Shown: piece by piece, positions 1,504 through 63,209 of the stretch
How positions within the stretch are numbered: the first letter of the stretch is position 1
Layout: each line of letters opens with the position of its first letter
DNA from: Basidiobolus meristosporus CBS 931.73
Taxonomy: Eukaryota; Fungi; Basidiobolomycota
Assembly: GCA_002104905.1 (NCBI GenBank)
Contig: MCFE01000116.1
Coordinates: 62,001 to 126,000 of the forward strand
Length of the DNA stretch: 64,000 nucleotides
Direction of reading: 5' to 3'
Translations under genes and position numbers: made by a program
The notes under the pieces: generated by a model
Databases searched by the model: none
Seen by the model: the letters and a program-made list of their open reading frames with translations, nothing else
What the model was told of the DNA's origin: nothing

Positions 1504-1866
1504 TGTTGAAATACTGGACTATTTGGTATCATTCAGCAGCTAAAAACTTAACATATCTAGACTAGTCATGGTCACTGTAGGACTTATTGGCAGCCCTAAC
1601 CTTGCCAGTTTCTTCACATCAATGATCCTATGATTATTCCCCTGCAGTGAAGATCAAATTAACACTTTTTACCAAACATTCTGTACTAACCCTGTAGCTG
1701 TTACAAAATGCTCCTGAATGTTAAGAAACCCTCCTTACTAAGTGTGGCAGCTGTGTTACTTCTACAAAGGTATAAATTCTGATCCTCTTTATGAACTAAT
1801 GACAGTTTGACTAATATCACTGTATCTTGATAAATTCCTTATATTCAAATCACTACTTAAATTGCA
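1504..1866 (+). repeat. 3' LTR of copia remnant (last ~3 nt missing)
   Basis: Follows the PPT, starts TGTTGAAAT, matches 715-1080 and ends ...TTAAATTGCA directly against the tandem array. Confidence 0.85.
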
Positions 1867-3050
1867 CGCGCGTAAGTTGGTTTTTGGCTCGAATTTGGGT
1901 TTAAAAAAAATATTTACGCTTGAAAGTTTTAAAAATTTTGTTTATGAGTATAGGATTAACAGCAAAAGAGTTTAGTCCGAGATTTGTCGAATATTTACGC
2001 GCGTAAGTTGGTTCATAGGTTTAATTTGGATTTAAAAAAAAATATTTGCGCTTGAAAGTTTTTTAAATTTTGTTTATAAGTAGAAGATTAACAACAAAAG
2101 AGTTTAGTCCGAGATTTGTCAAAATTTACGCGCGTAAGTTGGTTATTAGCTCCAATGTGGATTAAAAAATAAAAAGATATATTTACGCTTTAAGAATATT
2201 TTGGTTTATAAGTATAGGATTAACAGCCAAAGGGTTTGGTCCGAGATTTGTCAAAATTTACGCGCGTAAGTTGGTTCATGGGTTTAAATTTGGATTAAAA
2301 AATAAAAAGATATATTTACGTTAAATATTTTGGTTTATAAGTATAGGATTAGCAACCATATAGGTTTGGTCAAACGTTTATCCAAATTTTACGCGCGTAA
2401 GTTGTTTTTTAACTCCGATTTGGGTTTAAAAAAAATATTTGCGTTATAAAAGTTTTTTAAATTTGTTTATAAGTAGAAGATTAGCAACCAAATAATTGGG
2501 TCAAATTTTCCCGCGCATAAGTTGGTTATTAGGATGAATTTGGGTTTAAAAAAAATATTTACGTTTTAAGAGTTTTTAAAATTTGGTTTACAAGTATAGG
2601 ATTAGCAATTAAATAATTGGGTCAAATTTTTACGCGCGTAAGTTGGTTTAGAACTTGAATTCGGGTTAAAAAAAAAATATTTACGTTTTAAGATTTTTTT
2701 AATCTGTTTATAAGTATAGGATTAGCAATTAAATAATCGGGCCAAAAATTTACGCGCGTAAGTTGGTTATTAGGATGAATTTGGATTTAAAAAATAAAAA
2801 GATATATTTACGCTTTAAGAATTTTTAAATTTGTTTGTAAATATAGAATTAGTAAACGAAAAGGGTTTTTCGAAATAAAATCCCAAAGTTTGTAAAAATT
2901 TACGCGCGTAAGTTGGTTTAGAACTTGAATTTGGGTTTAGAATTAAAAACAAAAAGACTTTCAAGACGATTAAAAACTTTATAAGTATAGGATCAACAAC
3001 CAAAAGGTTTAATTTAACATTTGTGAAATAGTTACGCGCGTAAGTTGCTT
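1867..3050. repeat. Tandem array of ~120-150 bp units, each with the 12-bp palindrome TTACGCGCGTAA
   Basis: About ten cores at ~1867 (truncated), 1995, 2125, 2257, 2389, 2510 (variant), 2630, 2749, 2899 and 3032, with AT-rich spacers. Confidence 0.92.
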
Positions 3051-3159
3051 TTTAATATGATTTTGGGTTGAGGATTAAAAAAAGATATCTTCAAGCCGAT
3101 TTTAAAATTTGTTGTAAGTGTAGGATTAACATACTTAAAGGGTTATTCGAGGTTAAATT

Positions 3160-5080
3160 CCAAAGTCTCCAAAAGTTTTTTCGTCAAACAAAAAAAATAT
3201 CTAAGATAAAAAGTTTCCAAAAGTATTCTTGCAAAAAGTTTTAAACCAAAATTTGTATATAAGATAAAAAGTTTCCAAAAGTATTTTCGTCAAACAAAAA
3301 ATTATATCCGAGAGAAAAAAGTTTCTAAAAAAATATTTACGTGAATCAGATTTTGTATAAGATGCATGGCGTTAGTTATACAAATAAGATGGTGGCAGTT
3401 GGAAGAGAAAAAGAGTTTTTAAAAAATATTTTTGCCAGAAGTTTTAAAAATAAAATTTTGTATAAGATGTATGGCGTTGATTATACAACTAGGATGTTGG
3501 CGGTTGGAAGAGAAAAAAGTTTTAAAAAATATTTTCGCGAATCAGATTTTGTATATGATGGGTGTCGTTAGTTATACAAATAAGATGTTGGCGGTTGGAA
3601 GAGAAAAAAGTTTAAAAAAATATTTTTGCGAATCAGATTTTGTATATGATGGGTGTCGTTAGTTATACAAATAAGATGTTGGCGGTTGGAAGAGAAAAAA
3701 GTTTTAAAAAATATTTACGTGAATCAGATTTTGTATAAGATGGATAGCGCTGTTGCTACAATTATGATGTTGGCGGTTGAAAGGAAAAAAAGTTTTTAAA
3801 AATATTTTCGCGAATCAGATTTGTTAGAGTTAATATGTCGTTGTTGCCACAACTAGCTGGTTGACAGTTGGAAGAAAAAAAAGTTTTAAAAAATATTTTT
3901 GCCAAAAGTTTTCTTCACGAAGTTAAAAAGATATATTTTTATATAGGGTGTGTTATAAATGCAGGAATTAGGATGGTGGACATTCGGAAAATAAAAAAGT
4001 TTAAAAAAGTTTTCTTCACGAAGTTAAAAGATATATTTTTGTATATAGGATGTGTTATAAATGCTGCAACTAGGGTTGGAACGTTTGAAAAATAAAGAGT
4101 TAAAAAAATTTATTCGCCAACCAGAGATTTTATAGGATGAACATCATAGTTTACACAATTAGGAGGCTGACATAGGTAATTAAAAAGTTTAAACAAAGCT
4201 TGAAAGATATATTTTTATATGATGAACATCATAGTTTACACAATTGGGATGTTGACACAGGTAATTAAAAAGTTTTAGCAAAGCTTGAAGATATTTTTAT
4301 ACGATGAACATCATAGTTTACACAATTAGGAGGCGGATATCGGTAATTAAAAAGTTTTAACAAAGCTTGAAAGATATTTTTTTATACGTAGGATGTCATA
4401 AGTGCAGAAACTGGGGTTAAAACGTTCGACAAACAAAAAGTTTCCCAAAAAGTTTTTCCAAAAAGTTTGGCTAGAGCAAAAAAAGGTTCAGAAGAGTTTA
4501 GTTGCAAGTAAAAAAGTATGTACGTAGGATATCATAAGTGCAGGAATTAGGGTTGGGACGTTCGACAAACAAAAAGTTTCCCAAAAAGTTTTTCCAAAAA
4601 GTTTTTCCAAAAAGTTTGGCTAGAGCAAAAAAAAGGTCCAGAAAAGTTTAGTCGCAAGTAAAAAAGTATGTACGTAGGATGTCATAAGTGCAGAAACTGG
4701 GGTTAAAACGTTCGACAAACAAAAAGTTTCCCAAAAAGTTTTTCCAAAAAGTTGTTCCAAAAAGTTTGGCTAGAGCAAAAAAAGGTTCAGAGAAGTTTAG
4801 TCGCAAGTAAAAAAGTATGTACGTAGGATGTCATAAGTGCAGGAATTAGGGTTGGGACGTTCGACAAACAAAAAAGTTTCCCAAAAAGTTTTTCCAAAAA
4901 GTTGTTCCAAAAAGTTTGGCTAGAGCAAAAAAAGGTTCAGAGAAGTTTAGTCGCAAGTAAAAAAAAAGGTTTATATATAAATGTCATAAGTGCAGGAATT
5001 AGGGTTGGGACGTTCGACAAACAAAAAAGTTTCCCAAAAAGTTTGGCTAGAACAAAAAAAAGTTTTAAAAAAATATTTCG
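3160..5080. repeat. Series of distinct AT-rich tandem repeat families
   Basis: AAAAGTTTCCAAAA repeats (~3170-3340); GAATCAGATTTTGTATA...GTTGGCGGTTGGAAGAG units (~3340-3850); ATGAACATCATAGTTTACACAATT x3 (~4135-4330); ~135-150 bp TACGTAGGAT...ACGTTCGACAAAC units (~4385-5060). The short ORFs here are repeat read-throughs. Confidence 0.88.
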
Positions 5081-5098
5081 CCAAACAGATGTAAAAAA

Positions 5099-7714
5099 TT
5101 ATTTTAATTTCATACTGATATTCATAGAAGCCATAATGTGAGAGAACGATATCAACGAATGGGAAACTTCTTTATTTATAGTTTGTCCGTTGCAAACAGG
5201 ACACGACAGATGTGAGATCGGGAGCATTATTTCACAACTTTCACACCACCCAACCTTTTCCATATCGCTTTGCGCAATAATATTATGCATTGTATCTGAG
5301 GCACCATGGGCAATCAAACAATCCATTTCCATTTCTCCGAATCTTAAACCGCCACCTTTGGATCTTCCTGAGACAGGTTGGCCACTAAAAGAACTTCTTG
5401 GACCAGAAGGAATTCGGACGTGAATTTTGTCCTTAACCTGATGCTTAAGCGCTAAATAATACACGACTCCAACAGAGACAGGTTCTTGTATCATATTACC
5501 GTACATTCCGTTGTACACATACTCGGCATCATCCTTGAAATTAAATATATCCTCATCAGCCGTAAATGGCGTTCCATCTTTCGTATATCCATGTATAGAA
5601 CAATCTTTACCAACCAAACCTTCCAAAAGTTGCCCAATCGTCATACGTCCAGGAATAGCATGCGGATTAATAATTATATCAGGCACGATACCATCTTCCG
5701 TAAATGGCAAATTTTCCTGTGGCAGAATAATCGTGACGACACCTTTCTGCGCATGTCTAGAAGCAACTTTGTCACCAACTTCGATGTATTTATGAAAATT
5801 GGTGATAACCTTGACGTGCCGGCGTTTAGAATGTGAGACCTCGGTGACCCTACCTTTATCACATTTGACGACCCGAATTTTCTTTTCGGTAATTCCATCA
5901 ACTACGGTACATAATAGGTCACCATCTTCCAGTACGCCACCAACCTTTGGAATACCATTTACATATTTAGTTTCATCAAACATTTCCCCGGTTACAATAA
6001 TTTCAGATTCGTCACCCAAAAGTTCACAAACGTTGACATGTCGGGTAAAAGATCGAAACAAACCGCGGTCAACGGCAGATTTGGAAATAATAACACCATC
6101 TTCTTGGTTATATCCGGTATAAGATTGTATCATCACGACCAAATTAACCCCGTTGGGTTGTTCGTCCATTTTTAATAGATCATAAACAAATGTATCGACC
6201 AATGGCACCTGGGCATATTCCAAAAAGTTTGTATCACCAGAAGTAATGGTAGAAGGGGAGTAAAGTTGCATACCTTGTTTGATCATGGCAGAAGCAAAGA
6301 CATTACGCGCAGACTGGTTGTGGTTGGCATAGGGGACCATAGAGGCAGGAATACCCATCATAACCCAGGGGTGAATTTCCATGTGAGTATACGTAGGATG
6401 GTGTCCATGATATCCGATGTCACCCAGGGTGATCTGGGATTGTTCATCAGGATCGACGAATTCTATCTTGCCAGTTTCTAAAAGAGAATCCCAGGAGAGA
6501 GAATTTAATTCGTTCCAATCTATAGGTGTGCCAGAGAGTTTAAAAAGTGGTCTCATAAATCGGCCGGAAGAAGTTTTGATGTAAATAATTCTGGGGATGG
6601 GTTTGTAATAGAGGACAGAGATCATGGGATGAATTTGTTTGAGTGTGTTTCGAAGATGTGCCAAGGTGCCACCATAAAAGCCGATGATGTACCCGTCTAA
6701 GAGGACAGGATGTTTGACGTCACAATCGTCGTAGGATAAATTATTTTTTAACCAAGTTTGAGCTTCGAAAAATTTTTCATCGGAGATGGTAGAGAGCAAA
6801 CAAGTGAGGGCGAGATGTTTGATAATACCGACGTTTTTGCCTTCGGGGGTTTCGCAGAGACAGACGTAACCCAACTGGCTGGGGTGAATGGCTCGCATGT
6901 GAATGTTAGAAGTGTTTTCGTCACAGGGGACGATAATTTTGCGAACCATGGAGAGTTCGTCGATGGTGGATTTGCGCGAGACCAAGTTAACCATTTTGGA
7001 ATAGATTTTGCCGTGTATAATTTGTTGACCTTCTTTAAGCATGGTAAAGAGTTCATCCTCCAAAAAAGTTTGCAGACGACTTTCGGTGTCAGAGAGTTTG
7101 ATGGCACGAGATAAGATTTGGTCTAAAAGGATATTGGAAGATTTGCCGAGTTTGTTACCATAATCATCACGATCCATGGGTTGGAGAAGATCCATAGAGG
7201 TCATAAGGGCGAGATAAGATAACAGGCCGAGGGTATAGACGACGCTATATTTATCTTGCATGGGGAAATATTTGGATTCTAGAACGTGTAGATCTTCGGG
7301 GGAGATGGTGTTTTCAGATTCGGTCATGGAGGCCAAGAAGATGGTGGAGAAAGTATTTACGTGAGAACGGTTGGCGACGAGGAGGGCGAGTATTTCGTAA
7401 ATTTTACCGAAGTCGAAACCGAGATTGTTCATGATCCAATAGACGGACAAGCGCTTAACACCATTAAGATCTTTGTGGGTGGAGGAGACGTCTAGATAAA
7501 GGTCAACGGAATTTTTAACGCAGACACGTAATGGGAGAAGGGAGCCCCGGAAGCGGGTTTCGCAGGAGACGACATTATCAGCGGCGGAGACGTAGGGGAT
7601 AAAGATGTTGCGTAATTCTTGAATAAGGGGGACACGTTCGATGCCATCGATGATGTAGTATCCTCTGTGGTTAATAAGGGGGAGTTTGCAGACGAGTCGG
7701 CTGTTGTGGTGCAT
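5099..7714 (-). CDS. rpb2: DNA-directed RNA polymerase second-largest subunit (RPB2-like), intronless and divergent, probably from a large DNA virus
   Basis: Motifs GYYIIDGIERVPLIQE, CETPEGKNVGIIKHL, HNQSARNVFASAMIKQ, GYNQEDG, GDKVASRHAQKGVV, PDIIINPHAIPGRMTIGQLLE, GLRFGEMEMDCLIAHGA and a C-terminal CxxC...CxxC. Family identity is certain from the motifs; viral origin is inferred. Confidence 0.93.
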   Translation of the reverse strand: MHHNSRLVCKLPLINHRGYYIIDGIERVPLIQELRNIFIPYVSAADNVVSCETRFRGSLLPLRVCVKNSVDLYLDVSSTHKDLNGVKRLSVYWIMNNLGFDFGKIYEILALLVANRSHVNTFSTIFLASMTESENTISPEDLHVLESKYFPMQDKYSVVYTLGLLSYLALMTSMDLLQPMDRDDYGNKLGKSSNILLDQILSRAIKLSDTESRLQTFLEDELFTMLKEGQQIIHGKIYSKMVNLVSRKSTIDELSMVRKIIVPCDENTSNIHMRAIHPSQLGYVCLCETPEGKNVGIIKHLALTCLLSTISDEKFFEAQTWLKNNLSYDDCDVKHPVLLDGYIIGFYGGTLAHLRNTLKQIHPMISVLYYKPIPRIIYIKTSSGRFMRPLFKLSGTPIDWNELNSLSWDSLLETGKIEFVDPDEQSQITLGDIGYHGHHPTYTHMEIHPWVMMGIPASMVPYANHNQSARNVFASAMIKQGMQLYSPSTITSGDTNFLEYAQVPLVDTFVYDLLKMDEQPNGVNLVVMIQSYTGYNQEDGVIISKSAVDRGLFRSFTRHVNVCELLGDESEIIVTGEMFDETKYVNGIPKVGGVLEDGDLLCTVVDGITEKKIRVVKCDKGRVTEVSHSKRRHVKVITNFHKYIEVGDKVASRHAQKGVVTIILPQENLPFTEDGIVPDIIINPHAIPGRMTIGQLLEGLVGKDCSIHGYTKDGTPFTADEDIFNFKDDAEYVYNGMYGNMIQEPVSVGVVYYLALKHQVKDKIHVRIPSGPRSSFSGQPVSGRSKGGGLRFGEMEMDCLIAHGASDTMHNIIAQSDMEKVGWCESCEIMLPISHLSCPVCNGQTINKEVSHSLISFSHIMASMNISMKLK

Positions 7715-7930
7715 GTAATGTCCTTCGTAAGTTATACGTTAAACGATTGCATCATCGGGGTGAATTTTAGGGGGGATAAATTTTATGTCATGACCAAATT
7801 TTTCCTTGAGCTTAGATTCGAATTTTTGTAAGACGTAAGTGTGGGAGTGGGAGATGTTAGCATCGAAACCATATTTGTCGAAAAATTTTTGTAGGATGTT
7901 GGTACGGGCGTGGAAGAGAGAGTGGTGCAT
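7715..7930 (-). pseudogene. N-terminal portion of the same RPB2-like gene, separated by one in-frame TAA (7739-7741)
   Basis: Reads ...HPDDAIV*RITYEGHY-MHHNSR in one frame, matching RPB2 P-x-EARLRNLTY. ILQKFFDKYG resembles the RPB2 N-terminal helix. ATG at 7930. Confidence 0.8.
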
Positions 7931-8072
7931 GATAACCTGATGGATATGAGTGGTAGAACAAGGAGGGAGAGCCGAGATATAATTCAAAGTAATAACATCA
8001 AATGTAATGAGTTGAAAAGGATAAAATTAAACCTGGACTTATCTTGGTTTCGTACAGTAAATACAAACTATC

Positions 8073-8702
8073 ATGTTACCAAAGATCCAATCCATTAACT
8101 GGGTGACACCAGAATCGTTTGATGAGTCTAAGATATTTTTGTCGGAGGCAGTAGCGACAGGTGGGCCCTACATGCGTAGATCTGTGATGTATACGTACGA
8201 AGGATATACCGAGCCAAAAGATTTGTGTGTTACGACATTAAGGAATCAGGAAGGGTTAATTTTTTGCAAGGGGGTAGAGAAGGAGAAATTTGGACAGGGA
8301 GAGAAGAGGGTAGAGACGAACCATACGACGGCGATGTTTACGTTAAAGGGGGACAATCCGTATCACGTAGAGTTGTATAAGATGTTGGGGGTAGTGTTGA
8401 AGAAGGTGTCAGATGAGTCGGGGATAAGTGTGGATAACATAAAGGTACCGATAGTGGATTTGGATGATAAATCGTTGTTGTATGCGAGATTAATACAATC
8501 AAACGATGGGACGATTTATAGTGCGGCGTATACGAATCAGAAGCAGATGGATATACGTGAGATAAGCAATGCGATGACGAGACCGGCGCTTATATTTACG
8601 TTAACGTATAAGGACAAGAGCCAGGGAAGGCTTAGAATACAGTTAAGTCAGATGTTTGTCGATAGGATTATAGAATCTTTTCCGTTGGCGAATAGGGATT
8701 AG
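8073..8702 (+). CDS. DUF2738-like protein (putative OB-fold ssDNA-binding protein of nucleocytoplasmic large DNA viruses)
   Basis: Intact, intronless 209-aa ORF. Segments FDESKIFLSE, IFCKGVE, LYARLIQS and RLRIQLSQMFV resemble, from memory, iridovirus/marseillevirus DUF2738 proteins. Needs HMM confirmation. Confidence 0.6.
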   Translation: MLPKIQSINWVTPESFDESKIFLSEAVATGGPYMRRSVMYTYEGYTEPKDLCVTTLRNQEGLIFCKGVEKEKFGQGEKRVETNHTTAMFTLKGDNPYHVELYKMLGVVLKKVSDESGISVDNIKVPIVDLDDKSLLYARLIQSNDGTIYSAAYTNQKQMDIREISNAMTRPALIFTLTYKDKSQGRLRIQLSQMFVDRIIESFPLANRD

Positions 8703-8764
8703 GGTGAAGGGGGGTAGCGTGAGTATAAACTTTGAGATAAAAGTTATATTTTGTGAAGGATGGG

Positions 8765-8899
8765 AGAAATAAAAATAAATATTCATGCGAGAGATTTTTA
8801 AAAGGGTTTTTAAGTTAACGTGGGGGAGGGTAAGAAATAAAAATAAATATTCATGCGAGAGATTTTAAAAAGGGTTTTTAAGTTAACGTGGGGGAGGGT
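8765..8899. repeat. Two-copy ~68 bp direct repeat
   Basis: AGAAATAAAAATAAATATTCATGCGAGAG...GTTAACGTGGGGGAGGG at 8765 and 8833. Confidence 0.9.
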
Positions 8900-8939
8900 G
8901 AGAAAGATTCAGGGGATGTAGACAAGGGTTCAAAGGGTG

Positions 8940-10548
8940 GGAACTAAGATAGGATTAGCGAGAAAAAATGGGGATTTATTAATAAAATAATATTTTGCAT
9001 AGGACAAAACAAGGATTAATGCAAGATTGGTTAACAATCTTAACGATTTTCAAATTTGGCAATTAAGATAGGATTAGCGAGAAAAAATTCGAATTTATTA
9101 ATAAAATAATATTTTGCATCAGACAAAATAAGGATTAGTGCGAAATATGCTTTTGATTTAAACAATTTTTCAAATTTGGCAATTAGTACAGGATTAGCAA
9201 AAAATTTTCGAATTTATTTGCGAAATTAATATTTTGCACCAAACAAAAATTGGATTAGTGTGAAATTGGTTAACGATTTAAACGATTTTCCAAATTTGGC
9301 AACTAATATCGGATTAACGAATTTTTTCGGAATTTATTGGAAAATTAATTTTTTGCACTAGACAAAATAAGAATTAATGCGAAAATGGTTAACGATTTAA
9401 ACGATTTTTCAAATTTGGCAACTAGTACAGGATTAGCGAAAAATTTTCGAATTTTTTGGAGAATTAATATTTTGCACCAGACAAATTGTGGATTAGTGCG
9501 AAATGTGTTATCGATCTTGACAATTTTCCAAATTTGGCAACTAGTACCGGATTAGCGAAAAATTTTCGAATTTTTTGGGGAATTAATATTTTGCACCAGA
9601 CAAAATAAGAATTAATACGAAATTGGTTAACGATCTTAACGATTTTTCAAATTTGGCAACTAGTACCGGATTAGCGAAATTTTTTCGAATTTATTAATAA
9701 ATTAATATTTTGCATTAAACAAAATAAGGATTAATGCGAGATTGGTTAACAATTCGAACGATTTTTCAAATTTGGCAACTAGTACCGGATTAGCGAAAAA
9801 TTTTCGAATTTTTTGGGGAATTAATATTTTGCACCAGACAAAATAAGGATTAATACGAAATGTGTTATCGATCTTAACGATTTTTCAAATTTGGCAACTA
9901 GTACCGGATTAGCGAAAAATTTTCGATCTTTTTGGAGAATTAATTTTTTGCACCAGACAAAATGTGGATTAGTACGAAATGTGTTAACGATCTCAACGAT
10001 TTTTCAAATTTGGCAACTAGTACCGGATTAGCGAAAAATTTTCGAATTTTTTGGGAAATTAATTTTTTGCACCAGACAAAATAAGGATTAATACGAAATT
10101 GGTTAACGATCTCAACGATTTTTCAAATTTGGCAACTAGTACCGGATTAGCGAAAAATTTTCGAATTTTTTGGGAAATTAATTTTTTGCACCAGACAAAA
10201 TGTGGATTAGTACGAAATGTGTTATCGATCTCAACGATTTTTCAAATTTGGCAACTAGTACCGGATTAGCGAAAAATTTTCGAATTTTTTGGAAAATTAA
10301 TTTTTTGCACCAGACAAATTGTGGATTAGTGCGAAATGTGTTATCGATTTTGACGATTTTTCAAATTTGGCAACTAGTACCGGATTAGCGAAAAATTTTC
10401 GATCTTTTTACGAAAATTAATTTTTTGCACCAGACAAAATGTGGATTAGTGCGAAATGTGTTATCGATCATGTCGATTTTTCAAATTTGGCAACTAGTAC
10501 CGGATTAGCGAAAAATTTTCGAATTTTATTTGGAATTAATTTTTTGGA
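8940..10548. repeat. Tandem array of ~13 x 120 bp units
   Basis: CAAATTTGGCAACTAGTACCGGATTAGCGAAAAATTTTCG recurs every ~120 bp. Units become more homogeneous toward 10.5 kb and the array ends mid-unit. Confidence 0.95.
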
Positions 10549-10681
10549 TCAATCTGGACAATGTTGCTTGTGGTCTGTATTCTTCCTCCTGAAGCTCACC
10601 ATCTGATTCCTCAAGGTATTCACTTACCATCTGTCTGATACTTTGGAGCTGTTGCCTGGATGAGTCCTGTGTATATTGCTC

Positions 10682-11194
10682 TCAGAAGCCACTTAGCTCT
10701 ATTAATATATCATGTAGTACATTAGTCATTTGAGGCAAAAACTCATTCAAAATCTCTTTGGTTCCCAAAGTTGAGGCACAAACAGACATGTCCAGCCCGT
10801 ACTGTGCAAATTGCGCGCGAAATTGTTCCCGCGCGGCTTCTTTGTCAAATCCCCTCACTCTCAGCTCATTCTTGATTTCAATACTTGTCTTGTTATATAT
10901 CTTTTTACATACATTGGCTGGCATCTTGATGTAGAACTCATGCCACAGCTTCCTACTCAAATTCTTCCATCTTTGTTGACTCTCTGAGGTATCTAGTTCT
11001 GCTAGATTAATCAGTAGTGCCCAAATATCTGTATGAAGGCTCATCATAGACACTTGGACCATACTAAAATCATTTGGCAAGAACTTGAACGGATCCAACA
11101 TCAACTTTTCTGGTCCGGACCGCGCTTGTGAGCTGGGGGATGGGTTTTGTCTGGGTTGTACTAAAGATGAGTTGAGGCTTGGTATGGGGACCAT
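10682..11194 (-). CDS. Hypothetical protein, possibly the Myb/SANT-like accessory ORF of the neighbouring transposase
   Basis: 170-aa ORF divergent from the transposase. QRWKNLSRK is only weakly Myb/SANT-like. Confidence 0.35.
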   Translation of the reverse strand: MVPIPSLNSSLVQPRQNPSPSSQARSGPEKLMLDPFKFLPNDFSMVQVSMMSLHTDIWALLINLAELDTSESQQRWKNLSRKLWHEFYIKMPANVCKKIYNKTSIEIKNELRVRGFDKEAAREQFRAQFAQYGLDMSVCASTLGTKEILNEFLPQMTNVLHDILIELSGF

Positions 11195-11552
11195 AGCAAC
11201 GGATTTGGATACTTATACAGCAGTATATTGGCATCAACCTGGTCTTATATGAAATATATATGAAAACTAAAGTGATTGTTGAATTTTCCATATATTATGC
11301 ATGATGCATCTTGGATTGCGTTGACACGGATCAGATTGCACAATTGCAGATTTCCTATTTGATTATAGACCTATGCCTAAAGCATCAATAAAAGTACCAA
11401 GGCATTGATTGCAGATGATTTTTGCGACATAATGATGGGATACATGGCAATTGATGGAGATTTAACCATAATGTGTTAAAAATCAGATAAATAACGCAGA
11501 TCGCGCCGAATCGATTCAAACCGCCTCCATACAATCATCCACCAGTTTTAAT

Positions 11553-12437
11553 ATGACTTACTCATCTGAATGGTCTTTTCTCATCAATCCCATCACTACC
11601 ACTGGATTTCCTTTTGACACACTGGAGGAGATCTATACTGAGTACTGTGGACCATCAACCCCAATCTGCTCAAGGAGATCCCTTGTTAAGCTTCTCTGCT
11701 ATTACAAGAACTATTGCCCTACAAGGTTTCATCCCACAATCCATGGCAACAAAAGTCCTAGAAGCTTTCATTCCCAGCTGACAGCAATGGAGAACCACCT
11801 TGCAGAGGGTATGAATAACTTAGAGCAAGCTTGGAATACTAGGTTCAGAAGCTCCAATAGACTTCCATATCCCAGAGTGTTCAGCAACAGGTTCCATATC
11901 AGGAGTATTTTAGATACCTTCCCAGTGAGGATTAATAGACCTTCTAGAGGGCAGAGGCACTTTTATTCTGGCAAGTACAAGGCACACTGTGTGAAGTTTC
12001 AAGCACTGTCTGACATTGAGGGTAACATCATCTGGTTTAGTGGGCCATTTGCTGGAAGTAGGCATGACAAAGTACTCTGGGTAGAGAATCATCCTGAATT
12101 CAGTAGAGGGGAGAAATGTATGGCAGACTTAGCCTATATAGGAGAGGATTGTCAGAGATTAGGATGTATTACAGCTTATAGGAAGCCAAGGAATGGTGTG
12201 CTTAGCAGGAGGCAGAAGCTCTACAATGAGATATTTAATCATTTCAGAGTAAGGGTAGAGCACACATTTGGATATCTGAAGAGATTCAGCATATTGGCAG
12301 GTAAATACAGAGGAAAGTCATATATAGGAGAAAACAGCAGAATAGGTAAAATAGTTAAGATACTTATTAATGCACAGTATGTTCATACAAGAAGACATCC
12401 ACTGAGAGATATGTGTCTGGAGCATTATGAAGAGTAA
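11553..12437 (+). mobile_element. DDE_Tnp_4-family transposase (PIF/Harbinger-ISL2EU type)
   Basis: Motifs ILDTFPVRINRP, YSGKYKAHCVKFQ, GSRHD, MADLAYIG and RVRVEHTFGYLKRF. Intact 294-aa ORF; TIRs not identified. Confidence 0.88.
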
Positions 12438-12530
12438 ATAAAGCAAGGAAAGCACTATTCTGAGCAACATAAGTAAGATTGAGTAAAATTACCAGTAACT
12501 GTATCATACCACTGGCATCATGGTAGAAAT

Positions 12531-12604
12531 TATAGTGCCAGATAGTGCCGTAGAGTGCCAGATCAATCTGGCACTATAAACAGGCTGGCACTATGTGGCA
12601 CTAT
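12531..12604. repeat. Inverted repeat / hairpin with reiterated AGTGCC and GGCACT motifs
   Basis: AGTGCCAGAT-CA-ATCTGGCACT centred at 12564-12565, with three AGTGCC on the left and three GGCACT on the right. Confidence 0.75.
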
Positions 12605-13195
12605 CCAACAGAACAAGTCTATTGAGTTGTAACAAGGTATTTATACTTATTGCAAAACTATATACATATAACTATCTGTTACAATATCCACATATGACTC
12701 CCAATGATCATTACATACAGGGATTTGACTGGGCTCATGCATGGTACTGTTGTTAGGGGAGATAGGTTCAAAATCCATCAGTGGACCTTCTTTGTCAGAG
12801 CTATCACTCTGTGTGCCATATTCAGAAGGCTGAGGTGAGCCTAAAGGTGTCAAAAGCTCACCTGACTCAGTTGGTGCAAGGTGACAAAGACAGCCAGGTG
12901 CTAATACAGAAGTATCAACTGGCTGGTAAGAAAATGTTGGTAATAACAGGACAAGCAAATAATAGATGCTGAGCAATCATCATCCCAGGTAGAGAAAGCT
13001 GTATCTTTGCTGCAAAGAAGGATCTCCAGTAGCACAATGTCACAGCCAAGAATTGAGCCATTTCCCAACATATCAGCAGAGGAACAGCAAACAGTCTTTG
13101 ACAACAGTGCCAAAGATAAAGCCCACAGAAAAACCTATCACAGTGTGGGAGGGAGAAAATGTGGTGTTTATACCAAAGCCTAAAAATCAAAGACA

Positions 13196-14354
13196 TTGAA
13201 GATCTGTGAAGCCATTGAGTGCAACAATGAACAGTGGGCTAATATTCAAGAAGCCATCAGAAGTCTTGCACACCATTACCTCAAGGCTGGCATACCATGG
13301 GACCATCAGGAACTCAAGGCCAAGCAGAATGTACTTGACTTGTTCCATGAGCATTATCCTGGGTTCAGCTGGGCAAATGGATTTTGGGCCAGTATTTGTA
13401 TGCTAGGAAAGTATCTTAAGAATGACAGATACTATCAAAGTCAGAAGAACACGGGTGCCATGGCTAAAAGCCAGCAGCTTCCTCAAGAGCTGTTACAAGC
13501 AGGGCCAAAAGCTCCAGACAAGTGTTAAAGAGACATCAAGTAGCTTGAAGAGTGCCAATTAGGGACAAGCAGGCAGACACAAATGCACCAGCACAACATT
13601 TATCAAGAAAAAAGTGTAGAACAACTCAAGCAGCACTCATTCAAAGTGGCAGTGAAGGACCTAGCAGTGATAAAAACCAGCCACTCTTACAGGAGTCTGT
13701 CACAACTACAGTTGAGAGCTCAAAACAAGCTGAAAAGAGACATCATGTTACCAGAAGAGTGCCAGCAAGGGACAAGCAGGACAAAACAGATGGGTCAGAG
13801 CAGAATTTATCCAGGAGAAAACATAGTTCTTTACAAGCAGCACTCAGACAAAGTAGCAGTTAAATACCTGGCAGGAATAAAGGAAAAGGTAAAGGGAGAA
13901 ATGTCTACCCAAGCCTCAGAAAGGGAGTCATGCAAAAAAACTGCAGTTCTTGCCAATCAACACTGCAAGCCTGGAACAGACAAAATCCCTTCATAGCAAA
14001 GAAGATTTACCAACAAGACAACAGCTGTTTTTATAAGAGTTGGAAGCACAGCCAGTTGAGCTACACTGCAGCAAGGTAGATGAGTTTGCAGAAAAAGGCA
14101 ACTTGTCTACCACAGCCTCCACATCCTTCATTGTTGACAGAGTGGAGATCCCACTGACAGACAAGGCTACAATGTCAAGAACTCAAAAGACTATCACAAT
14201 GCCTTCAGTGAAATTTTGCAACATCAATAGGCACACCAAGAGTTTGCAGCACTTCTTCAAGAGCAGTGCTCATGAAAATGCACTGGTATATTACAAGGAT
14301 TTAATGCAAAGACTGGCAGATGAGGTGAAAGCCGTGGGGTTCCTGCCAAAGTAG
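13196..14354 (+). pseudogene. Fragmented ORF of unknown, probably TE-associated, family with an internal ~207 bp duplication
   Basis: Consecutive broken ORFs (13196, 13552/13583, 14040). 13528-13690 resembles 13735-13875. The DNA is CpG-poor like the neighbouring TEs. Confidence 0.4.
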
Positions 14355-15747
14355 CGGGACCAGAGCATTACAGCAGAAATACTTATTGAGTAGTGGATTT
14401 TAATGGAGTTACTTGTTGAGTGTGGGGTTGGGCTTAATGTTAGTGTAGAGTGTAGGGACTTGTATAGGTCAATACAATTGGCAATTCAGGTACAATTGAA
14501 GTTTCAACAGAAATAAATCAATATGTATGCATGAAAAGTAAGAGAAATGGTTAAGTCAGGAAGTAAGGAGTGTAAGAAAGAGGCAATAGCCAATCAATGC
14601 ACACAAATGTAGGAGGCAATAGAGTATCCAGGATCAGAAAGTGAGCAAATTGGCAGGGAACCAACCAAAAGCCACTTGTACATTGTTGTGATCAAAAATC
14701 TTGACTAAGTTTTTTGTGAAATCTGGTGTGCAATTATTTTTCAATGGTCTCTAGACAGTGTCCTGATGGGATCAGTACCTTTAAGTCATGGGACTTTAAT
14801 TTTGTGACGGCCTTTTGATGGGATCATAACAATAATCTTTCATAGGGGCCACTGTACTGCCATAATAATGCCAGCAGAGGTTAGCCATGGAGCTGTCAGA
14901 ATGCTGCCAAGTTTCTAGCCATAAAATGCAATTGGATGTATTGGCTGGCTAGGTCTGCTCAAATAAAAGAAGAGTGCATCAGGACCATCAGAATTCCATG
15001 CAATACCTGCTCAGAGACTGCTGAAACACCATCATCTTTTTTGCTTTATTTCACAGTTAAATCAGAAAAATACCAATACAATCCTGTCTTAAGCTTGTAT
15101 GGAGAGTCAATAATTCAAGCTGCTGGGATTATAATGAAAATACTATGGGATCCTGGCAGCTGATCTGGATTGGATTCAGCTGCCGGACCAAATTAGTTTT
15201 CATAGGGACCAAAAACAGACAATAGCACTCAGTGCACCAGAATAAATCTGCAGAATGAGTGCCCAAGATTAGCAAGTGAGAGAAAAGACCAGGAACCAAT
15301 CAATAGTAACCTAGGAGCTGACCAAGTTAGAAACTTTACCATGTGTTCTTTGACTTTCAGTGAACAAACATACCCTAACACTCTTTATACAGTGTTTTGA
15401 TGCCATTTATATCAGTAAGTCACAGAATCTTGATATTTTACCAATACTTTGACAGGATTATCAGAGTTTTTTTATTAGACATTATGCACATTGAGGTCAG
15501 GTCCTTTATTTTCTCTTCCTACACTTTGTAGCATCCTCTCTAACATCCTTAGATGTGCATGCTTCTCTCATTGCAAAACCTTAAATGCCTCTTTCCTTTA
15601 TTATCATCTGATTCTGTGCCATCCAGATTTGGTGGTTGAATTGATGCAATTGTTTGGTACAGGGAAGAGCTCAGTTATATCAGTACTGGGGACTGCTATG
15701 AGTACAATCAGGGGGTTGATGGCCTGCTGCCAGAGTATTGATAATAA

Positions 15748-16095
15748 TGCTGTGAGAGTCTTGGAGATATTGGAAGTGATTGGGAGACAAGTAGATTATG
15801 TGGTTTTCACTTAATGATTTATTGAATGTAAAAGTAGTATTTATACTTTTACATGGTCTTGGCATTACAAACACATAGAATAGGTTAAGGAAGGTCCCAA
15901 GAACATGTGTGCAAAGTTTGGGGCTGTTTGGACAACTTTGAGAATTTTCATGTTCTGGGTACCTGGTACTTGGGTGCAAATATTCCAAGTAAATCCCAAC
16001 AAGGAACTTGGTCAGTATTCTCTAGGATTTGAAGGTGATGATCTAAGTGACTAAGTTAGATGAATATTTAGGTGGAAATACAAATTTCTACAACA
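15748..16095 (-). repeat. 3' LTR
   Basis: About 14 substitutions and 2 indels versus 20081-20428 (hand count, ~95% identity). Confidence 0.92.
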
Positions 16096-16192
16096 CTCCC
16101 ACTCAGCTAAATGTTCATACTGACTAGTCCTAATTTTGACCTAAGATATTCAAACTTGTCTCTAGCTAATGGTTTGGTAAATATGTCCTCAA

Positions 16193-16483
16193 TCATTTCA
16201 TCTGTAGGACAGTAACTAAGCTAACTAAGTTGTTCTCTATAGCTTCATGTATGAAATGATGTCTAATATCTATGTGCTTGGTTCTAGCATGAAAAGTTTG
16301 ATTTCTACCTAGTTGTATACATCCTTGATTATCTTGAAATAAAGTAATGGGCGTTTTTTGACATAGGCCTAAATCTGTAAAAAGCTTTCTTAACCACATT
16401 ATTTCTTTTGTAACTTCACAGGCTGCCATATACTCTGCCTCTGTAGTGAAAGTGCTATGGTTGGTTGCTTTCTTGAATTCCAT
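16193..16483 (-). pseudogene. Copia RNase H fragment
   Basis: TTEAEYMAA...WLRKL...HARTKHIDIRHHFIHE. Confidence 0.9.
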
Positions 16484-16527
16484 GAAATTGCTCCTTTACA
16501 GTAAAGAAAGGTGTATCCTGTGGTGGA

Positions 16528-17616
16528 TCATCTGTCTTCTAAATATTGTCCCCAATCAGCATCAGAGTATCCCACAAGATCCTGTTCTGAATCCTTATAA
16601 GTGTATCTTAAGCAGATATCAGCAGTTCCTTTTAGGTATCTAAAAATCCGCTTAACTGCTGCAATATGATCAGATCCATAGTTCTGATTATGTTGGCTGA
16701 CAACTACCAATGAATATGAGATATCTGGACGTGTTTCAAGCATGATATACATCAGACTGCCAGCCATAGATTGATAAGGAAAGTCAGGGCTTTCAGATGG
16801 CACCAAGCTCTCTTGATTTGGTTGAGTTTTGACCAAGTTAAGGTTTGTCTCCATTGGGGTAGCTGCCAGTTTACAGTCTTCCATTTGGTACTTCTTTAGT
16901 ACATCTTGAATATACTTGGATTGGCTTAGGGTGATAGTCTGGGTACTTCTGTCTATGGAGAACTTAATCCCTGAGTAGTAACTGAGTTCTCCTAGATTGG
17001 ACATCTTGAACTCTTTAGATAGGCTGAATTTAGTCTCTTCCAATGTTGCTAGGTTATTGGTGGCTATAATAAGATCATCCGCATATAGAGCTAATAGAGC
17101 TGGATTTGCTCTATCTGGCTTATAATATATACTATAGTCAGCATTACTTCTTTTGAAACTCAAAGATTCCAGATAAGAATCTATCTTGCAATTCCAGGCT
17201 CTTGGTAATTGTTTGAGACCATATGGTGACTTTTTAAGCTTGCAGACCAAATGGGGGTTATCTTGGTCAACAAACCCATCAGGCTGGTCCATATACAAGT
17301 CCTCATCAAGTTTTCCATTCAAAAATGCAGTTTTTACATCCATTTGATGAATAAAAAACTTATATTTGGCTGCAATAGCCAAAATTAACCTGATGGAATT
17401 AAACTTAGCTACCGGTGCAAAGGTCTCAGTATAGTCAAGTCCTTTTGTTTGAGAGTATCCTTTGGCTACAAGTCTTGCTTTGTATCTTTCAATTGTACCA
17501 TCAGCCTTGTATTTTGTCTTGACAACCCATCTGCATCCAATTGATTTTTGGTTGATTGGTAATTTGACTAAGTCCCAAGTTTGATTTTCCATCAGGGCCT
17601 GATATTCCTCAGTCAT
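16528..17616 (-). pseudogene. Copia reverse transcriptase (RVT_2) fragment
   Basis: YKARLVAKGYSQ, QMDVKTAFLNG, LYADDLII, YSDADW. Confidence 0.93.
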
Positions 17617-18093
17617 TGCAGATCTCCAAAACTTTGTCTGAGGGCTATTTAGGGCCTCTTTTACAGTCTGGGGTTTATAAATATGGACTGAATCGGCATA
17701 GGCTAAGTTTGTACCCTAATTGATATAGTAATTTGGGCTATTTCTTGTCCAATTGGATCACCAGGCATTTGATACTGGAACGATCACTTCTGGGATATTC
17801 CTGGGCACTGATTATGGCTGAACCACGGTTGTAGAGTCCTCTGGAGTGAAAAAATTTTCATTGTTTTGCTCTGATTCAATCCCAACAATTGGTGGATTTG
17901 AGATCAAATTTTTGTCATCATCTGATGTCATTTTTTGTCTAAATTAGGAATTTTCATCAAACAATGCATCCCTGGACTTGATCAGCTTCTTTGCTTTGGT
18001 ATTGTAGAGTCTGTATGCCTTACTCTCATTGCAGTAGCCCAAAAATATGCATTTTACACTTTTTGGCTCAAATTTTGACTGATTTCCAGCCAG

Positions 18094-18876
18094 TTATTTG
18101 GCATCTGCTGTACACCCAAATATTCTTAGATATTCTGCACTTGGTCTGTATCCATACCATGCTTCAAATGGAGTAGAATCACAAAGTATTCTGTTATAAC
18201 TCCTATTTTGAAGGTATACAGCAGTGGCAACTGATTCCGCCCAAAAATCGTAGGATAATTTTTGATCACAGATCATAGATCTTGCCATATCAATTATTGA
18301 TCTGTTAGCTTGTTCCACTACTCCATTTTGCTGTGGGGAGTATGGTAGAGTAGTCTCTTGCTTTATCCCATGAATTTTGCAGAAGTGGATGAATAGTTTT
18401 GAGATATGTTCTCCACCATTGTCAGAGCATATTTTCTTGATTTTTTCACCAGTTTCTCTCTCCACCATGGCTTTAAACTCCCTGAACTTAGACAGAGCTT
18501 CTTCCTTTCTCTCCATGAAGTAGACCCATGTGTATCTTGTATCACCATCAATAATAGTGATTAAATACTTTATCCTGCCTAAGGATAAATTTTGCATAGG
18601 TCCACACAGATCTGAGTGAATTAGCTCTAATTTTTTCTTAGTTTTGATTAACCCAGAGCTCTTGAACGGTTGTCTGGCTTGTTTCCCATATATGCAGGCT
18701 TCACAGTGCTCCAAATTAGCTGGGGGATCAGTTTTCACTCCAGATATTAGCTGATCTTTGATCATTTTACGCAAATAATCAAAATTGATGTGTCCAAATC
18801 TCCTGTGCCAAAGCATTGGTGTTTCTTCAATTAAGTTACTTATATTGGCTTCCAAGTATGATGGAATATAAGTCAA
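18094..18876 (-). pseudogene. Copia GAG-pre-integrase plus integrase core fragment
   Basis: LWHRRFGH, CEACIYGKQ, HSDLCGP, SDNGGE, PQQNGVVE. Confidence 0.93.
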
Positions 18877-18879
18877 CTT

Positions 18880-20076
18880 TTATAGATTTGGATCTCTGAT
18901 GCCTGAAGCAATATGGGCACCATTTTGGTCAGTGATCCTGCATCCAGAATTGTCAAAACTGAAACTGAGTCCTTCCGCTGTGACCTTGCTTACAGATAGT
19001 AGGTTCTTGGCTATTTCTGGTATATAGAGTACTTCTTTAAAGGTCAGTGTATGGCTTCCTTCACTGCTTCTAAGGTTTACTTGGATAGTTCCTTCTCCCA
19101 CTGCATCAAGTGTTCTATTGTCACCCATGAAAACCTTCTTAATTGGAATTTCTTGATATTGGGTAAAAAGTTCTTTTTGGTGTGTAAAGTGTTGAGAAGC
19201 TCCAGAGTCAATATACCACATCTGAGAATCCTTGTTTGTGGTCATATTTAGTGCAGATATGAATAGTCTGTCTTCAGTTGTTGCAGCATTTCTATATTCA
19301 GGCTTCTTTTGCTGATTATCTTTCTTTTTGAGACATTGGTCTGATGTGTGTCCTTTCCTTTTACAGTAGTTACAAAACAGGTTGCTGTTGCCTTTGTAGG
19401 GTCTTGGGTACCTCCTTTGTTGGTTATCAATGCTTATTAAAGCATTTTCTTCTTCCTTCTTATTGGCGCTTGATTTTCTTAATTCTTCATCCAGGAGCCT
19501 TCCATATACGTAATTTAAGGTCAAATCTTCAGTTCTGGACTCTAGGGCTGATACAAGGCCCTGAAACTTGTCTGTCAGGCTATTCAGAATGGTAACTATC
19601 ACATCTTCATCAGTAGTTGGTACGCCCACAGATTCCATCTCATGTACCAGCAGGGTAATTCTGTTAATAAGATTTTTCATTTCTTCTCCTGGCAGCATCT
19701 TTGTAGTAAAGAATTTTCATCTCAGATACATTTTTTTAGCAGCTGAACATGACTGGTAGGTGTCTTCTAATGCCTTCCAGGCATTCTTTGCCGTTTTTGC
19801 TCTTGAGCATTTAATTAGCAATTTGTCTTTAACATTATGGCAAATGCAGTTAAAGGCACTTTGTTCTTTCTTCTGGTACTTTAAGGCTTCCTCTCCCATG
19901 TTTTTAGGGAGGCATTCTTCTCCCATGACAATATCCCAAAGGCCTCTTTCTTGTAGCAGCATCTTCATCTTCACCTTCCATACTTGGTAGTTAGAGCCAT
20001 CCAACTTTTTAGCAGAGGGAAAAATTCCAGTAATAGCAGTAGTAGACATTGCAGAGAGTGACAGCTTGGGGCTCAT
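18880..20076 (-). pseudogene. Copia gag (zinc knuckle) and protease, split into two ORFs
   Basis: KLDGSNYQVWK, CNYCKRKGHTSDQC, WYIDSGASQH. Confidence 0.92.
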
Positions 20077-20080
20077 AACC

Positions 20081-20428
20081 TGTTGTAAGAGTCTGGAGAT
20101 ATTGGAAGTGATTGGGAGGACAAGTAGATTATGTGGTTTTCTCTTAATGATTTATTGAATGTAAAAGTAGTATTTATACTTTTACATGGTCTTGGCATTA
20201 CAAACACATAGAATAGGTTAAGGAAGGTTCCAAGAACATGTGTGCAAAGTTTGGGGCTGTTTGGACAACTTTGAGAATTTTCATGTTCTGGGTACCTGAT
20301 ACTTTGGTGAAAATATTCCAAGTAAATCCTGACAAGGAATTTGGTCAGTATTCTCTAGGATTTGAAGGTGATGATCTAAGTGACCAAGTTAGGTGAATAT
20401 TTAGGTGGAAATACAAATTTTTACATCA
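20081..20428 (-). repeat. 5' LTR
   Basis: Adjacent to the PBS; matches 15748-16095. Confidence 0.92.
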
Positions 20429-61172: not shown

Positions 61173-62630
61173 GGGGCATTTCGCTTTGGTCTAGCTGACA
61201 AGATATAAGGGATTACGCATGTTTGAGTTCAGGCTCTTCAACCGCACACCGCCAACTTAATGTAACATATGTCCACAATCAAGTTGGGAATTTTGACACA
61301 TAAATTAAATCTGCCTGTATGTATGCTGATGGTGTGTACAAATCATGATTTAGCACCACTTATTCATGTACACTGGATGGCTAGGTGAGTGAATATAAAG
61401 TGCTTATACTCAAGATTGAGTCTAGTGGATTGAGCATAGAACTTTTGCAAGACGTACCCTGTGAGTTTGACAGATTTTAATTACGGCATAGGCTGGTTAA
61501 ACTAAATGTAGAAACATGTCATGGATGGATTTTTCCAAACTTAAGGTCTTTGGGCTTCTGTGCTGAACTAGCAAAATATCTGTCAAATGCTCAATGAACT
61601 GGACATGGTATAGAGTGAATGAGTAGGTGCATTACTGAAGATTTACAATCCATACGGTAGTGGCTACTCACGTATTGTGGATTGTCTAGCACCTACACTT
61701 GGATTCGGAGTAATTAACAAGAAACAGGAAACTAAAAAGTAAGCATCAACCTCACTCCTTGGGTTTGATAAATTACCCACCTCAGCACATCAATCCAAAG
61801 AATCCTAATTCAGCCCCATCGATACAAGATTTTGATCTTATGGTGATTTACGATCTAATAAAAAATGAAACTCCATGACCAATCATTTTTTTTTCCTAGA
61901 GCCTGTTTGAGAAATCCCAATTTTGCTCACAACAATCATCATGACCCTCCCCCTACCTACCGTCAACGCGTGACTTTTGAGGAGTTGAACTATAGTACTA
62001 TGTCTGGTATGACAAGTGCAAGTTTACGTTGCCGTAGTGAATAGGTCGCTTCTAAGTAGACAGAGGTAATCTTGCAATTCTTCGCCTTCCTGTCCAGCCA
62101 CAAGGAATAGAGACTCTCTGAAGTTGGGCCCCTATGCATATGGGCAAAACATCACTCATCACAAATCATTGTATCAACAAGAAAATCGCCAATTCAACAG
62201 TGGTGGGAATCACCGGAATCACCGGAATCATACATAATCAAGGTATTCGAGAAACCATTTATTCTGGCCATGAGGGAGGTGATGCATTCGTGACGTCAAC
62301 GATTAATCCTAGAACCGATAACATTTAATCGACCCCCGCTAAATTCACACCAGTTAACACTAGATTATCGAATTGATGAACATCACCCATCTACCCCAAA
62401 TATGCACCACCAGTAGGTATATTCAAGCTTAAATGAGCTCATTAGCTGTGAGGCCCATACAACGGGTAGAGAGGATGCTAGAAAGCCGAAGGGTATAGGT
62501 GGCACTTCTTCGATCTAAATCTAGAATCTGGATCTATTGGTGTGACCATTTTCCAAAATATAAAACCATTTGGCTCTCCTCGGGATTCAGTGTGCCTTGA
62601 CACTACACTTCCAATCTCCCATACATTAGC

Positions 62631-63209
62631 ATGACTCAATACCTGACTGCCATCCCAGTGACCAGAGAGAACTTCGCTCCTTACGGAGATGTGGTCTGCG
62701 CTCATGACGGGCCTTTCATCAGCGCTAACCAGGGTACTGCCCAACGCTACAACCACGTTGCCACCTGCACCAACAACCGGGAAACCGAGAAGTCCGATGT
62801 CCCCAAGGCGAACCCTAACTTGTGCGTGTTCCGATGCAAGCCAGCAACCCAGATTCCTTTCCCCATCAAGCTTCTTGAGCGTCACCCCTACTCCTCCCAA
62901 TGCTTCGTCCCCATGGCTACCGAGCGCCCATCCAAGGGGTACCTGGTCATCGTCGCGCTGAACGGAAAGGACGACAAGCCCGACCTCTCCACCATGAAAG
63001 CCTTTACCTTCGCACGCAACCAAGGCGTAAACTATGGAGCCGGAATCTGGCATCACCCAATGGTCGCCCTTGAGGAGCTCACCGACTTCGGCTGCATTGT
63101 GTGGGAAAACAAGGTCCCCCATCACGATTGCAATATTGTCGAAATCGGAGGTGACTACAAAACCCACATTCCTGGCTACCGCGCCGCCTCCCCCTCCACC
63201 AAGCTCTAA
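62631..63209 (+). CDS. DAL3: Ureidoglycolate lyase (allantoin catabolism)
   Basis: Motifs FAPYGDV, ANQGTA, LLERHPYSSQCFVP, QGVNYGAGIWHHP. Confidence 0.93.
   Translation: MTQYLTAIPVTRENFAPYGDVVCAHDGPFISANQGTAQRYNHVATCTNNRETEKSDVPKANPNLCVFRCKPATQIPFPIKLLERHPYSSQCFVPMATERPSKGYLVIVALNGKDDKPDLSTMKAFTFARNQGVNYGAGIWHHPMVALEELTDFGCIVWENKVPHHDCNIVEIGGDYKTHIPGYRAASPSTKL

Follow-up and report, generated by a model that had tools for sequence, protein, structure and literature searches.

A contig of the fungus Basidiobolus meristosporus CBS 931.73 (MCFE01000116.1, assembly GCA_002104905.1) carries a short, repeat-rich island between transposable elements, which raises the question of whether a large DNA virus has left a piece of itself in this genome and, if so, from what kind of element the piece came. 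We analyzed a 64,000-nucleotide stretch of this contig (positions 62,001 to 126,000 of the forward strand, here called the window), in which the island spans positions 1867 to 10549 and consists of two intronless, head-to-head genes within repeat-rich DNA. One gene encodes a compact homologue of the RNA polymerase subunit RPB2, and the other, ORF2, encodes a predicted single-stranded-DNA-binding protein (SSB). We conclude that the island is genuinely endogenous and derives from a lineage already known, the fundsalphaviruses, and that it is probably a chromosomal copy of the RPB2-plus-SSB cassette of a fundsalphavirus-type element that is likely high-copy and extrachromosomal in a related fungus. 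Of its viral origin we have hardly any doubt.

The RPB2 gene (5099 to 7927, minus strand; 942 residues) and ORF2 (8073 to 8702, plus strand; 209 amino acids) have their ATGs at 7927 and 8073, respectively, with 145 bp between them, which agrees with the original prediction of a 209-amino-acid frame and of two head-to-head genes with about 140 bp between their starts. The divergent spacer (7928 to 8072) is presumably a promoter region common to both genes, and among four relatives that also have this pair of genes, the corresponding spacer measures 74 to 213 bp. The RPB2 frame had been described as open over about 943 codons, which is incorrect: codon 63 is a TAA (7739 to 7741), so that a stop-free stretch of 879 amino acids remains. 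We used sequencing reads from two studies, one of organism A (runs X1 and X2; possibly the source sample) and one of organism B (runs X3 and X4), a related fungus, and the stop is confirmed in the reads of run X1, where it accounts for about 112 of 500 in summed depth, while 4 other X1 contigs have a sense codon at this position. The 62 residues upstream of the stop are still alignable to the N termini of relatives, and the protein retains catalytic-region motifs and a C-terminal zinc finger. The reading of TAA as a sense codon was excluded, since other copies carry a sense codon there and RPB2 itself ends in TAA.

The only Pfam matches of RPB2 are to Rpb2 (beta-subunit) domains. In a listing of 120 homologues, the first row of which is the window's own product, the first 113 are mostly compact proteins of about 850 to 1,000 amino acids with 31 to 47% identity, and three of those listed bear Mortierellaceae names. 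The nearest clade member matches at 872 bits, and the scores against solved structures are 329 bits for archaea, 314 for mammalian Rpb2, 300 for yeast Rpc2, 286 for yeast Rpb2, and 236 for Rpa135. Two Pol II-like controls scored 1,187 to 1,291 bits against yeast and mammalian Rpb2; the island protein thus lacks orthologue-level similarity to Rpa2, Rpb2, or Rpc2 (236 to 314 bits). In a quick tree (LG+G4, SH-aLRT support only) of 95 rows hand-picked from several hundred RPB2-type sequences, the island RPB2 joins proteins P0002 and P0003 (SH-aLRT 100) within a 41-row clade (98) that includes three Mortierellaceae-labelled proteins and is separate from the Pol II-like rows and from 15 IMG/VR rows. 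An RPB2-alignment scan of a viral contig collection returned only generic giant-virus RPB2s at 29 to 39%, single-protein and SSB-alignment scans of that collection found no relatives, and a search of a plasmid collection returned bacterial rpoB only.

A structural model of ORF2 from a 7-sequence alignment had a predicted local distance difference test (pLDDT) score of 80; a model built on 3 sequences reached a pLDDT of 41 and could not be used. Four SSB-type chains match the model at Z scores of 8.4 to 10.5, compared to 6.1 for the next fold class, and Foldseek concurs. The match to CP312R of African swine fever virus (ASFV) has a Z score of 10.5 (root mean square deviation 4.9, 175 residues aligned), and those to T7 gp2.5 and the Enc34 SSB have a Z score of 8.9. 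Among the viral matches are ranavirus P31K (E value, 2.6e-9) and marseillevirus and pithovirus proteins. ORF2 is a predicted viral SSB of the oligonucleotide/oligosaccharide-binding (OB) fold; the predicted fold is common to ASFV CP312R, iridovirus P31K, and T7 gp2.5, with which ORF2 shares just 7 to 15% identity, and its DNA binding is likewise a prediction. The earlier description of ORF2 as DUF2738-like stands only in that the broad viral SSB fold is the same: ORF2 matches no Pfam family, DUF2738 (PF10927) has no match at an E value of ≤0.1, and DUF2738 is a minority label (10 to 13% of members) in two of the seven atlas rows listed for ORF2.

A clade-specific RPB2 motif retrieved 11 related loci. 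ORF2 homologues are present in 7 of these 11 elements and stand head-to-head with RPB2 in 5 (L083, L084, L087, L089, and L090), which argues that the gene pair is an inherited unit. Neighboring genes across the clade encode RPB1 in two pieces, RPB5, DUF5757, a capping enzyme, a D5 primase-helicase, UDG, and FEN1, and also TFIIS, SF2 helicases, HET-domain proteins, and a MutS-HNH protein; the split RPB1, RPB5, D5, and an SNF2-type helicase lie in clade loci L081 to L092, outside the window itself. The lineage therefore has the Nucleocytoviricota trait of its own multisubunit RNA polymerase together with replication genes. No Pfam match to a capsid protein, the A32 ATPase, or VLTF3 was found at an E value of ≤0.01 in 90 open reading frames (ORFs; 77 of 115 called plus 13) of partly covered clade contigs, the best covered of which is represented by 35 of 52 kb.

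The neighboring genes are the gene set shown in Fig. S2 of the report on fundsalphaviruses (Gong, Zhang and Han 2020, PMC7017919), so that the lineage matches these viruses, whose hosts, according to the part of that report used here, include Basidiobolus and Mortierella. The suggestion that the virus was undescribed is therefore withdrawn. In the same part of the report, the fundsalphaviruses resemble the island and its clade in host genus, in RPB2, RPB5, split RPB1, D5, and an SNF2-type helicase, in insertions among retrotransposons, and in nonsense mutations of the nuclear copies. They differ in being described as fossils, detected via family-B DNA polymerase (PolB), and that portion of the description has no kilobase polar arrays, SSB, strand skew, or intact high-copy form; the Basidiobolus entries seen in the supplement show no RPB2. 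The criterion given there for a fundsalphavirus is a PolB that groups near Pithovirus; PolB is absent from the window, and Gong et al.'s own sequences are outside our RPB2 tree.

Three features of the clade loci deserve a separate note. HET-domain genes adjoin RPB2 at L084:7360-8865 and L087:2-1783, which suggests that modules for fungal incompatibility or cell death are part of the element. In one clade member, MutS is fused to an HNH nuclease (L093:11628-14381); the portion of Fig. S2 consulted has MutS_III beside POL on one Basidiobolus contig (PMC7017919). RPB1 is split into genes of 610 and 416 amino acids about 20 kb apart (L081:13486-15318 and L092:3002-4252), and an RPB1 split already appears in the published account of the fundsalphavirus lineage, in the part used here (PMC7017919).

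The left island boundary is the first base after the terminal CA of a decayed Copia-type 3′ long terminal repeat (LTR), which lies on the host side, outside the element (1504 to 1866, plus strand; TG...CA ends and a polypurine tract upstream). A 300-bp contig from run X1 crosses the boundary between the LTR and the first array with 0 differences at 50x depth and includes 30 LTR letters. The observed/expected CpG ratio is 1.06 to 1.98 in the island, compared to 0.02 to 0.13 in the flanking transposable elements (0.02 over 1 to 1866, 1.98 over 8703 to 10548, and 0.13 over 10549 to 15700). Since the island has kept CpG beside stripped transposable elements, it is likely younger than the LTR and was joined at the LTR end. 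We consider integration in this genome very probable, and the prediction of an endogenized large-DNA-virus fragment holds: the tree and the scores exclude Pol II-like rows, the neighbors in the clade are genes of nucleocytoplasmic large DNA viruses, and the left junction is present in a read-derived contig.

In organism A, window-identical contigs have depths of 77 to 97x (143x over ORF2), and there are several copies of similar depth (77 to 176x), the diverged ones with 1-bp indels. The other copies have C>T/G>A changes at 213 places versus 81 in the reverse direction, and the codon-63 stop is private to the window copy among organism A contigs. We also found a 665-bp array contig in run X1, corresponding to positions 1867 to 2128, at 339x, several-fold the depth of the window copy, which indicates that more copies of this array exist elsewhere in organism A. 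Run X6, from the same sample as X1 and X2, gave 0 contigs, from which absence does not follow. In organism B, by comparison with its long diverged copies at 5.5 and 8.4x, contigs over both genes in run X3 have depths of 2,623 to 3,459x; they are 93 to 97% identical to the window, have no stop and no indel among the differences listed, and are uniform over 1,550 bp. Of 36 fixed differences listed between organism B and the window, third codon positions account for 29 and silent changes for 28 (the gene differences listed are 40 of 519 rows). Because the differences are mostly silent, the two forms would have diverged under selection, and the window copy probably died recently. One deep contig of organism B continues from RPB2 into sequence like that of the adjacent array D, and contigs like array A, at the opposite end of the left-hand repeats, have depths of 1,224 to 3,136x in X3 and 2,972 to 7,130x in X4, while the LTR is uncovered. 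The high depth of both sequences argues that the arrays belong to the high-copy form and are not host satellites. If the 5 to 8x diverged contigs are taken as nuclear, the copy ratio in organism B would be roughly 300 to 600. A free high-copy form in organism B is thus the likelier reading of these data, and the lineage, of which only fossil copies have been published, probably continues to multiply.

The arrays themselves are polar. On the left, array A (1867 to 3180) has 10 units of 120 to 150 bp with a CGCGCG-type core at each unit start, array B (3181 to 4127) has units of about 91 to 101 bp, array C (4128 to 4388) has 3 units of 82 to 85 bp, and array D (4389 to 5098) has units of about 150 bp and reaches the RPB2 stop. 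On the right, 2 copies of a 68-bp unit (8765 to 8905) precede array R (8938 to 10549), with 13 or more units of 119 to 120 bp and a right boundary that falls mid-unit. All are on the plus strand and co-directional, and GGATTA occurs 37 times on the plus strand of the island and 0 times on the minus strand. The predicted arrays were thus found on both sides, with periods of about 120 to 132, 91 to 101, 82 to 85, and 150 bp on the left and, on the right, of 68 bp and of 119 bp, the latter in 13 copies, as was the predicted excess of repeat over coding DNA, with 3,232 plus 1,847 bp (5,079 bp) noncoding versus 3,459 bp coding. Arrays A and R are homologous and share their orientation (z = 5.0, a value reached by 0 of 300 shuffles, in one comparison among 30), and arrays B and C are related (z = 5.2). 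The repeat patterns had no match in the viral contig collection, no blastn match in 91 loci, and none in Rfam.

We also found a pronounced strand bias at silent sites. At fourfold sites of both genes, read on the plus strand, G outnumbers C by 206 to 40 (P = 4e-28), and because this bias spans oppositely oriented genes, transcription is not its cause. Within RPB2, the G:C ratio changes from 45:31 left of position 6428 to 121:5 right of it (permutation, 0 of 2,000), so that the bias is weakest beside array D. The skew of RPB2 is −0.64 in the island, compared to values within ±0.29 in ten relatives, and that of the SSB gene is +0.82, compared to −0.37 to +0.26; the bias is purine-rich, with G and A up and C and T down. 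These patterns point to one-directional replication that would expose one strand and be reset at or near array D. The polar arrays, the strand gradient, and the SSB gene together suggest the arrays as replication origins, a proposal that we make tentatively and hold at somewhat below even chances. Of the earlier idea of a terminal or origin region, the origin part draws support from the polar arrays and the gradient, and the terminal part draws none, as long inverted arms are absent (the longest is about 35 nt at about 70%, with none at the island ends). Interspersed repeat arrays serve as origins in the homologous regions of baculoviruses, and position-dependent silent-site strand bias accompanies strand displacement in mitochondria. 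By analogy, the island may resemble both, although its units are not hairpin-enriched and its bias is toward G+A rather than G+T.

Taken together, these data suggest an element that makes its own RNA polymerase and SSB, to which relatives add a capping enzyme, a D5 primase-helicase, UDG, and FEN1, and which probably depends on no host nuclear machinery for its transcription and copying. The arrays would act as direction-setting replication starts or as protein-binding sites, and one strand, left single-stranded and coated by SSB, would acquire the silent-site gradient. One piece was likely captured recently through illegitimate recombination at an old LTR end, and it has started to decay, with one nonsense codon so far.

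Several points weigh against this interpretation. The skew is described as well by a step (22.3 log-likelihood units) as by a gradient (23.1), and the repeat units fold no better than shuffled sequences (z of −0.83 to +0.93 in 10 folds). The RPB2 tree has no bootstrap values, and its rows include neither Pol I or Pol III nor fungal Pol II labelled as such nor any pithovirus by name. With 30 LTR letters, the contig at the left junction falls short of the 31 required, and it comes from a run that may be of the source sample, junction support is limited to the left side, and it is possible that the exact boundary reflects LTR insertion into a longer island, which it would suit equally well. The organism B depths have no single-copy host gene as a control and are not copy numbers, the high-depth runs all come from a single sample in a single study with no library type on record, and no single organism B piece spans the whole cassette.

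The strongest alternative takes the cassette for a complete genome segment from an element that is multipartite and probably capsid-less. The segment would be a circle of approximately 8.7 kb, in which R and A form one repeat block, the common origin, that was opened at integration. The homology and shared direction of A and R fit such a circle, as do a short word that occurs in the R unit and again at the end of the LTR (R stops just before it, and A starts just after it), a skew that resets within 1.5 kb, and the position of the nearest homologues on 3.8- to 4.0-kb contigs. However, the A-R match is one of 30 comparisons, and repeats that break assemblies also yield short contigs. Before position 1867, the loose ends listed for organism B are additional units of the A type, and none of their 12 rows joins R to A (18 of 50 rows listed). 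Relatives lie on gene-dense contigs (coding fraction, 0.66 to 0.93) of up to 93 to 137 kb, with a longest internal gap of 1,568 bp in the 11 loci and no kilobase repeat arrays, and the B. heterosporus contig in the part of Fig. S2 used here has four viral genes in 8.8 kb (PMC7017919). We regard the circle as unlikely, and a single repeat-spaced genome as at least as likely. In its fullest version, Basidiobolus would harbor a living, capsid-less, multipartite giant-virus descendant with its gene cassettes on small circles, every one of which would have a polar repeat block as the shared origin and be copied by one-directional strand displacement to hundreds of copies per genome, and one entire 8.7-kb circle would have been caught in the window; this too we consider improbable, at about the same level.

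Less probable still is that everything is chromosomal, with nothing replicating freely; in organism B, an old viral insertion would have been amplified in the nucleus to hundreds of nearly identical copies, or library amplification bias would account for the depth. The similar depth of the several copies in organism A, its 339x array-A contig, and the lack of a host control and of a recorded library type in organism B favor this view, but the high-depth form is uniform and open and differs mostly at silent sites, whereas the presumed nuclear copies are diverse and C>T eroded and the island retains CpG beside stripped transposable elements. We give very little weight to a chimeric contig, in which host transposons and viral DNA present free in the culture were wrongly assembled together: both boundaries are repetitive and the bridging contig, on the left only, falls one letter short of the rule, but that contig spans the junction without a difference, the window-identical gene contigs have the depth of the decayed copies and not the high depth, and the window copy has a private stop. 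That the RPB2 is a rapidly evolving paralogue of nuclear Pol II/III, or the polymerase of a linear killer plasmid of the yeast type, is largely refuted, since, although its best solved-structure matches are cellular, its 286 bits amount to one-quarter of what Pol II-like proteins score, it has beta-subunit domains only and stands apart from the Pol II-like rows, terminal inverted repeats are absent, and viral neighbors occur across the clade.

The preferred reading, a cassette from a replicating fundsalphavirus-type element, can be set beside other known systems. Mycodnaviridae, as presented in the portion consulted, are likewise Nucleocytoviricota persisting in early-diverging fungi, but their definition is based on homologues of the major capsid protein in zoosporic fungi, they stand near Algavirales and Imitervirales, and the main text as consulted makes no mention of Basidiobolus or Mortierella (PMC13533422). 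Cytosolic virus-like elements, or killer plasmids, are similar in being capsid-less, self-transcribing DNA with a Nucleocytoviricota-derived RNA polymerase, and are reported from Zoopagomycota too; in the account available, they are linear with a protein-primed polymerase, whereas the island clade has D5, UDG, FEN1, TFIIS, and an OB-fold SSB (PMC13348850). Fungal linear plasmids have terminal inverted repeats, unlike the island with its co-directional arrays. Ariadnavirales were rejected as a protist virus group that, in the source material seen, has lost its transcription genes. In the literature searched, which did not cover subscription journals, the term fundsalphavirus occurs in one paper only, and no paper describes a high-copy or repeat-spaced form of the lineage; the accessible literature knows it as nuclear pseudogenes only, and a 2026 paper still cites it so. 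Within that literature, the intact high-depth form, its repeat architecture, and the strand gradient go beyond what is in print. An intact, uniform, high-depth form in a sequenced fungus makes a replicating giant-virus-derived element in a nonzoosporic fungus directly testable, along with its genome shape and capsid loss, and the window adds, beyond short-read contigs, the full array order around the gene cassette and a silent-site replication footprint.

Beyond the arrays, the DNA is derived from transposable elements, as predicted, with Copia on the left and a transposon on the right. The latter (10682 to 12437), outside the element, has a 170-amino-acid ORF on the minus strand and a DDE_Tnp_4 transposase on the plus strand, which we take to be of the PIF/Harbinger type. 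On the left, a second LTR (715 to 1080), 80.7% identical to that at 1504 to 1866, is nested in the Copia reverse transcriptase/RNase H region, and a further Copia-type element on the minus strand (15748 to 20428) has LTRs that are 95.4% identical and a broken gag-pol. The host gene SYP1 is spliced, as had been noted, and one of its exons is 100% identical to a protein that bears the label Basidiobolus meristosporus. A host tandem array (26500 to 60000) consists of approximately 1.8-kb units that are 77 to 92% identical, each with a gene for a short, secreted-looking peptide with two cysteines inside its KR-flanked core; one such frame has no Pfam match, and, judged by these features, the peptides are possibly a Kex2-processed family. 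A host ureidoglycolate lyase gene lies at 62601 to 63209.

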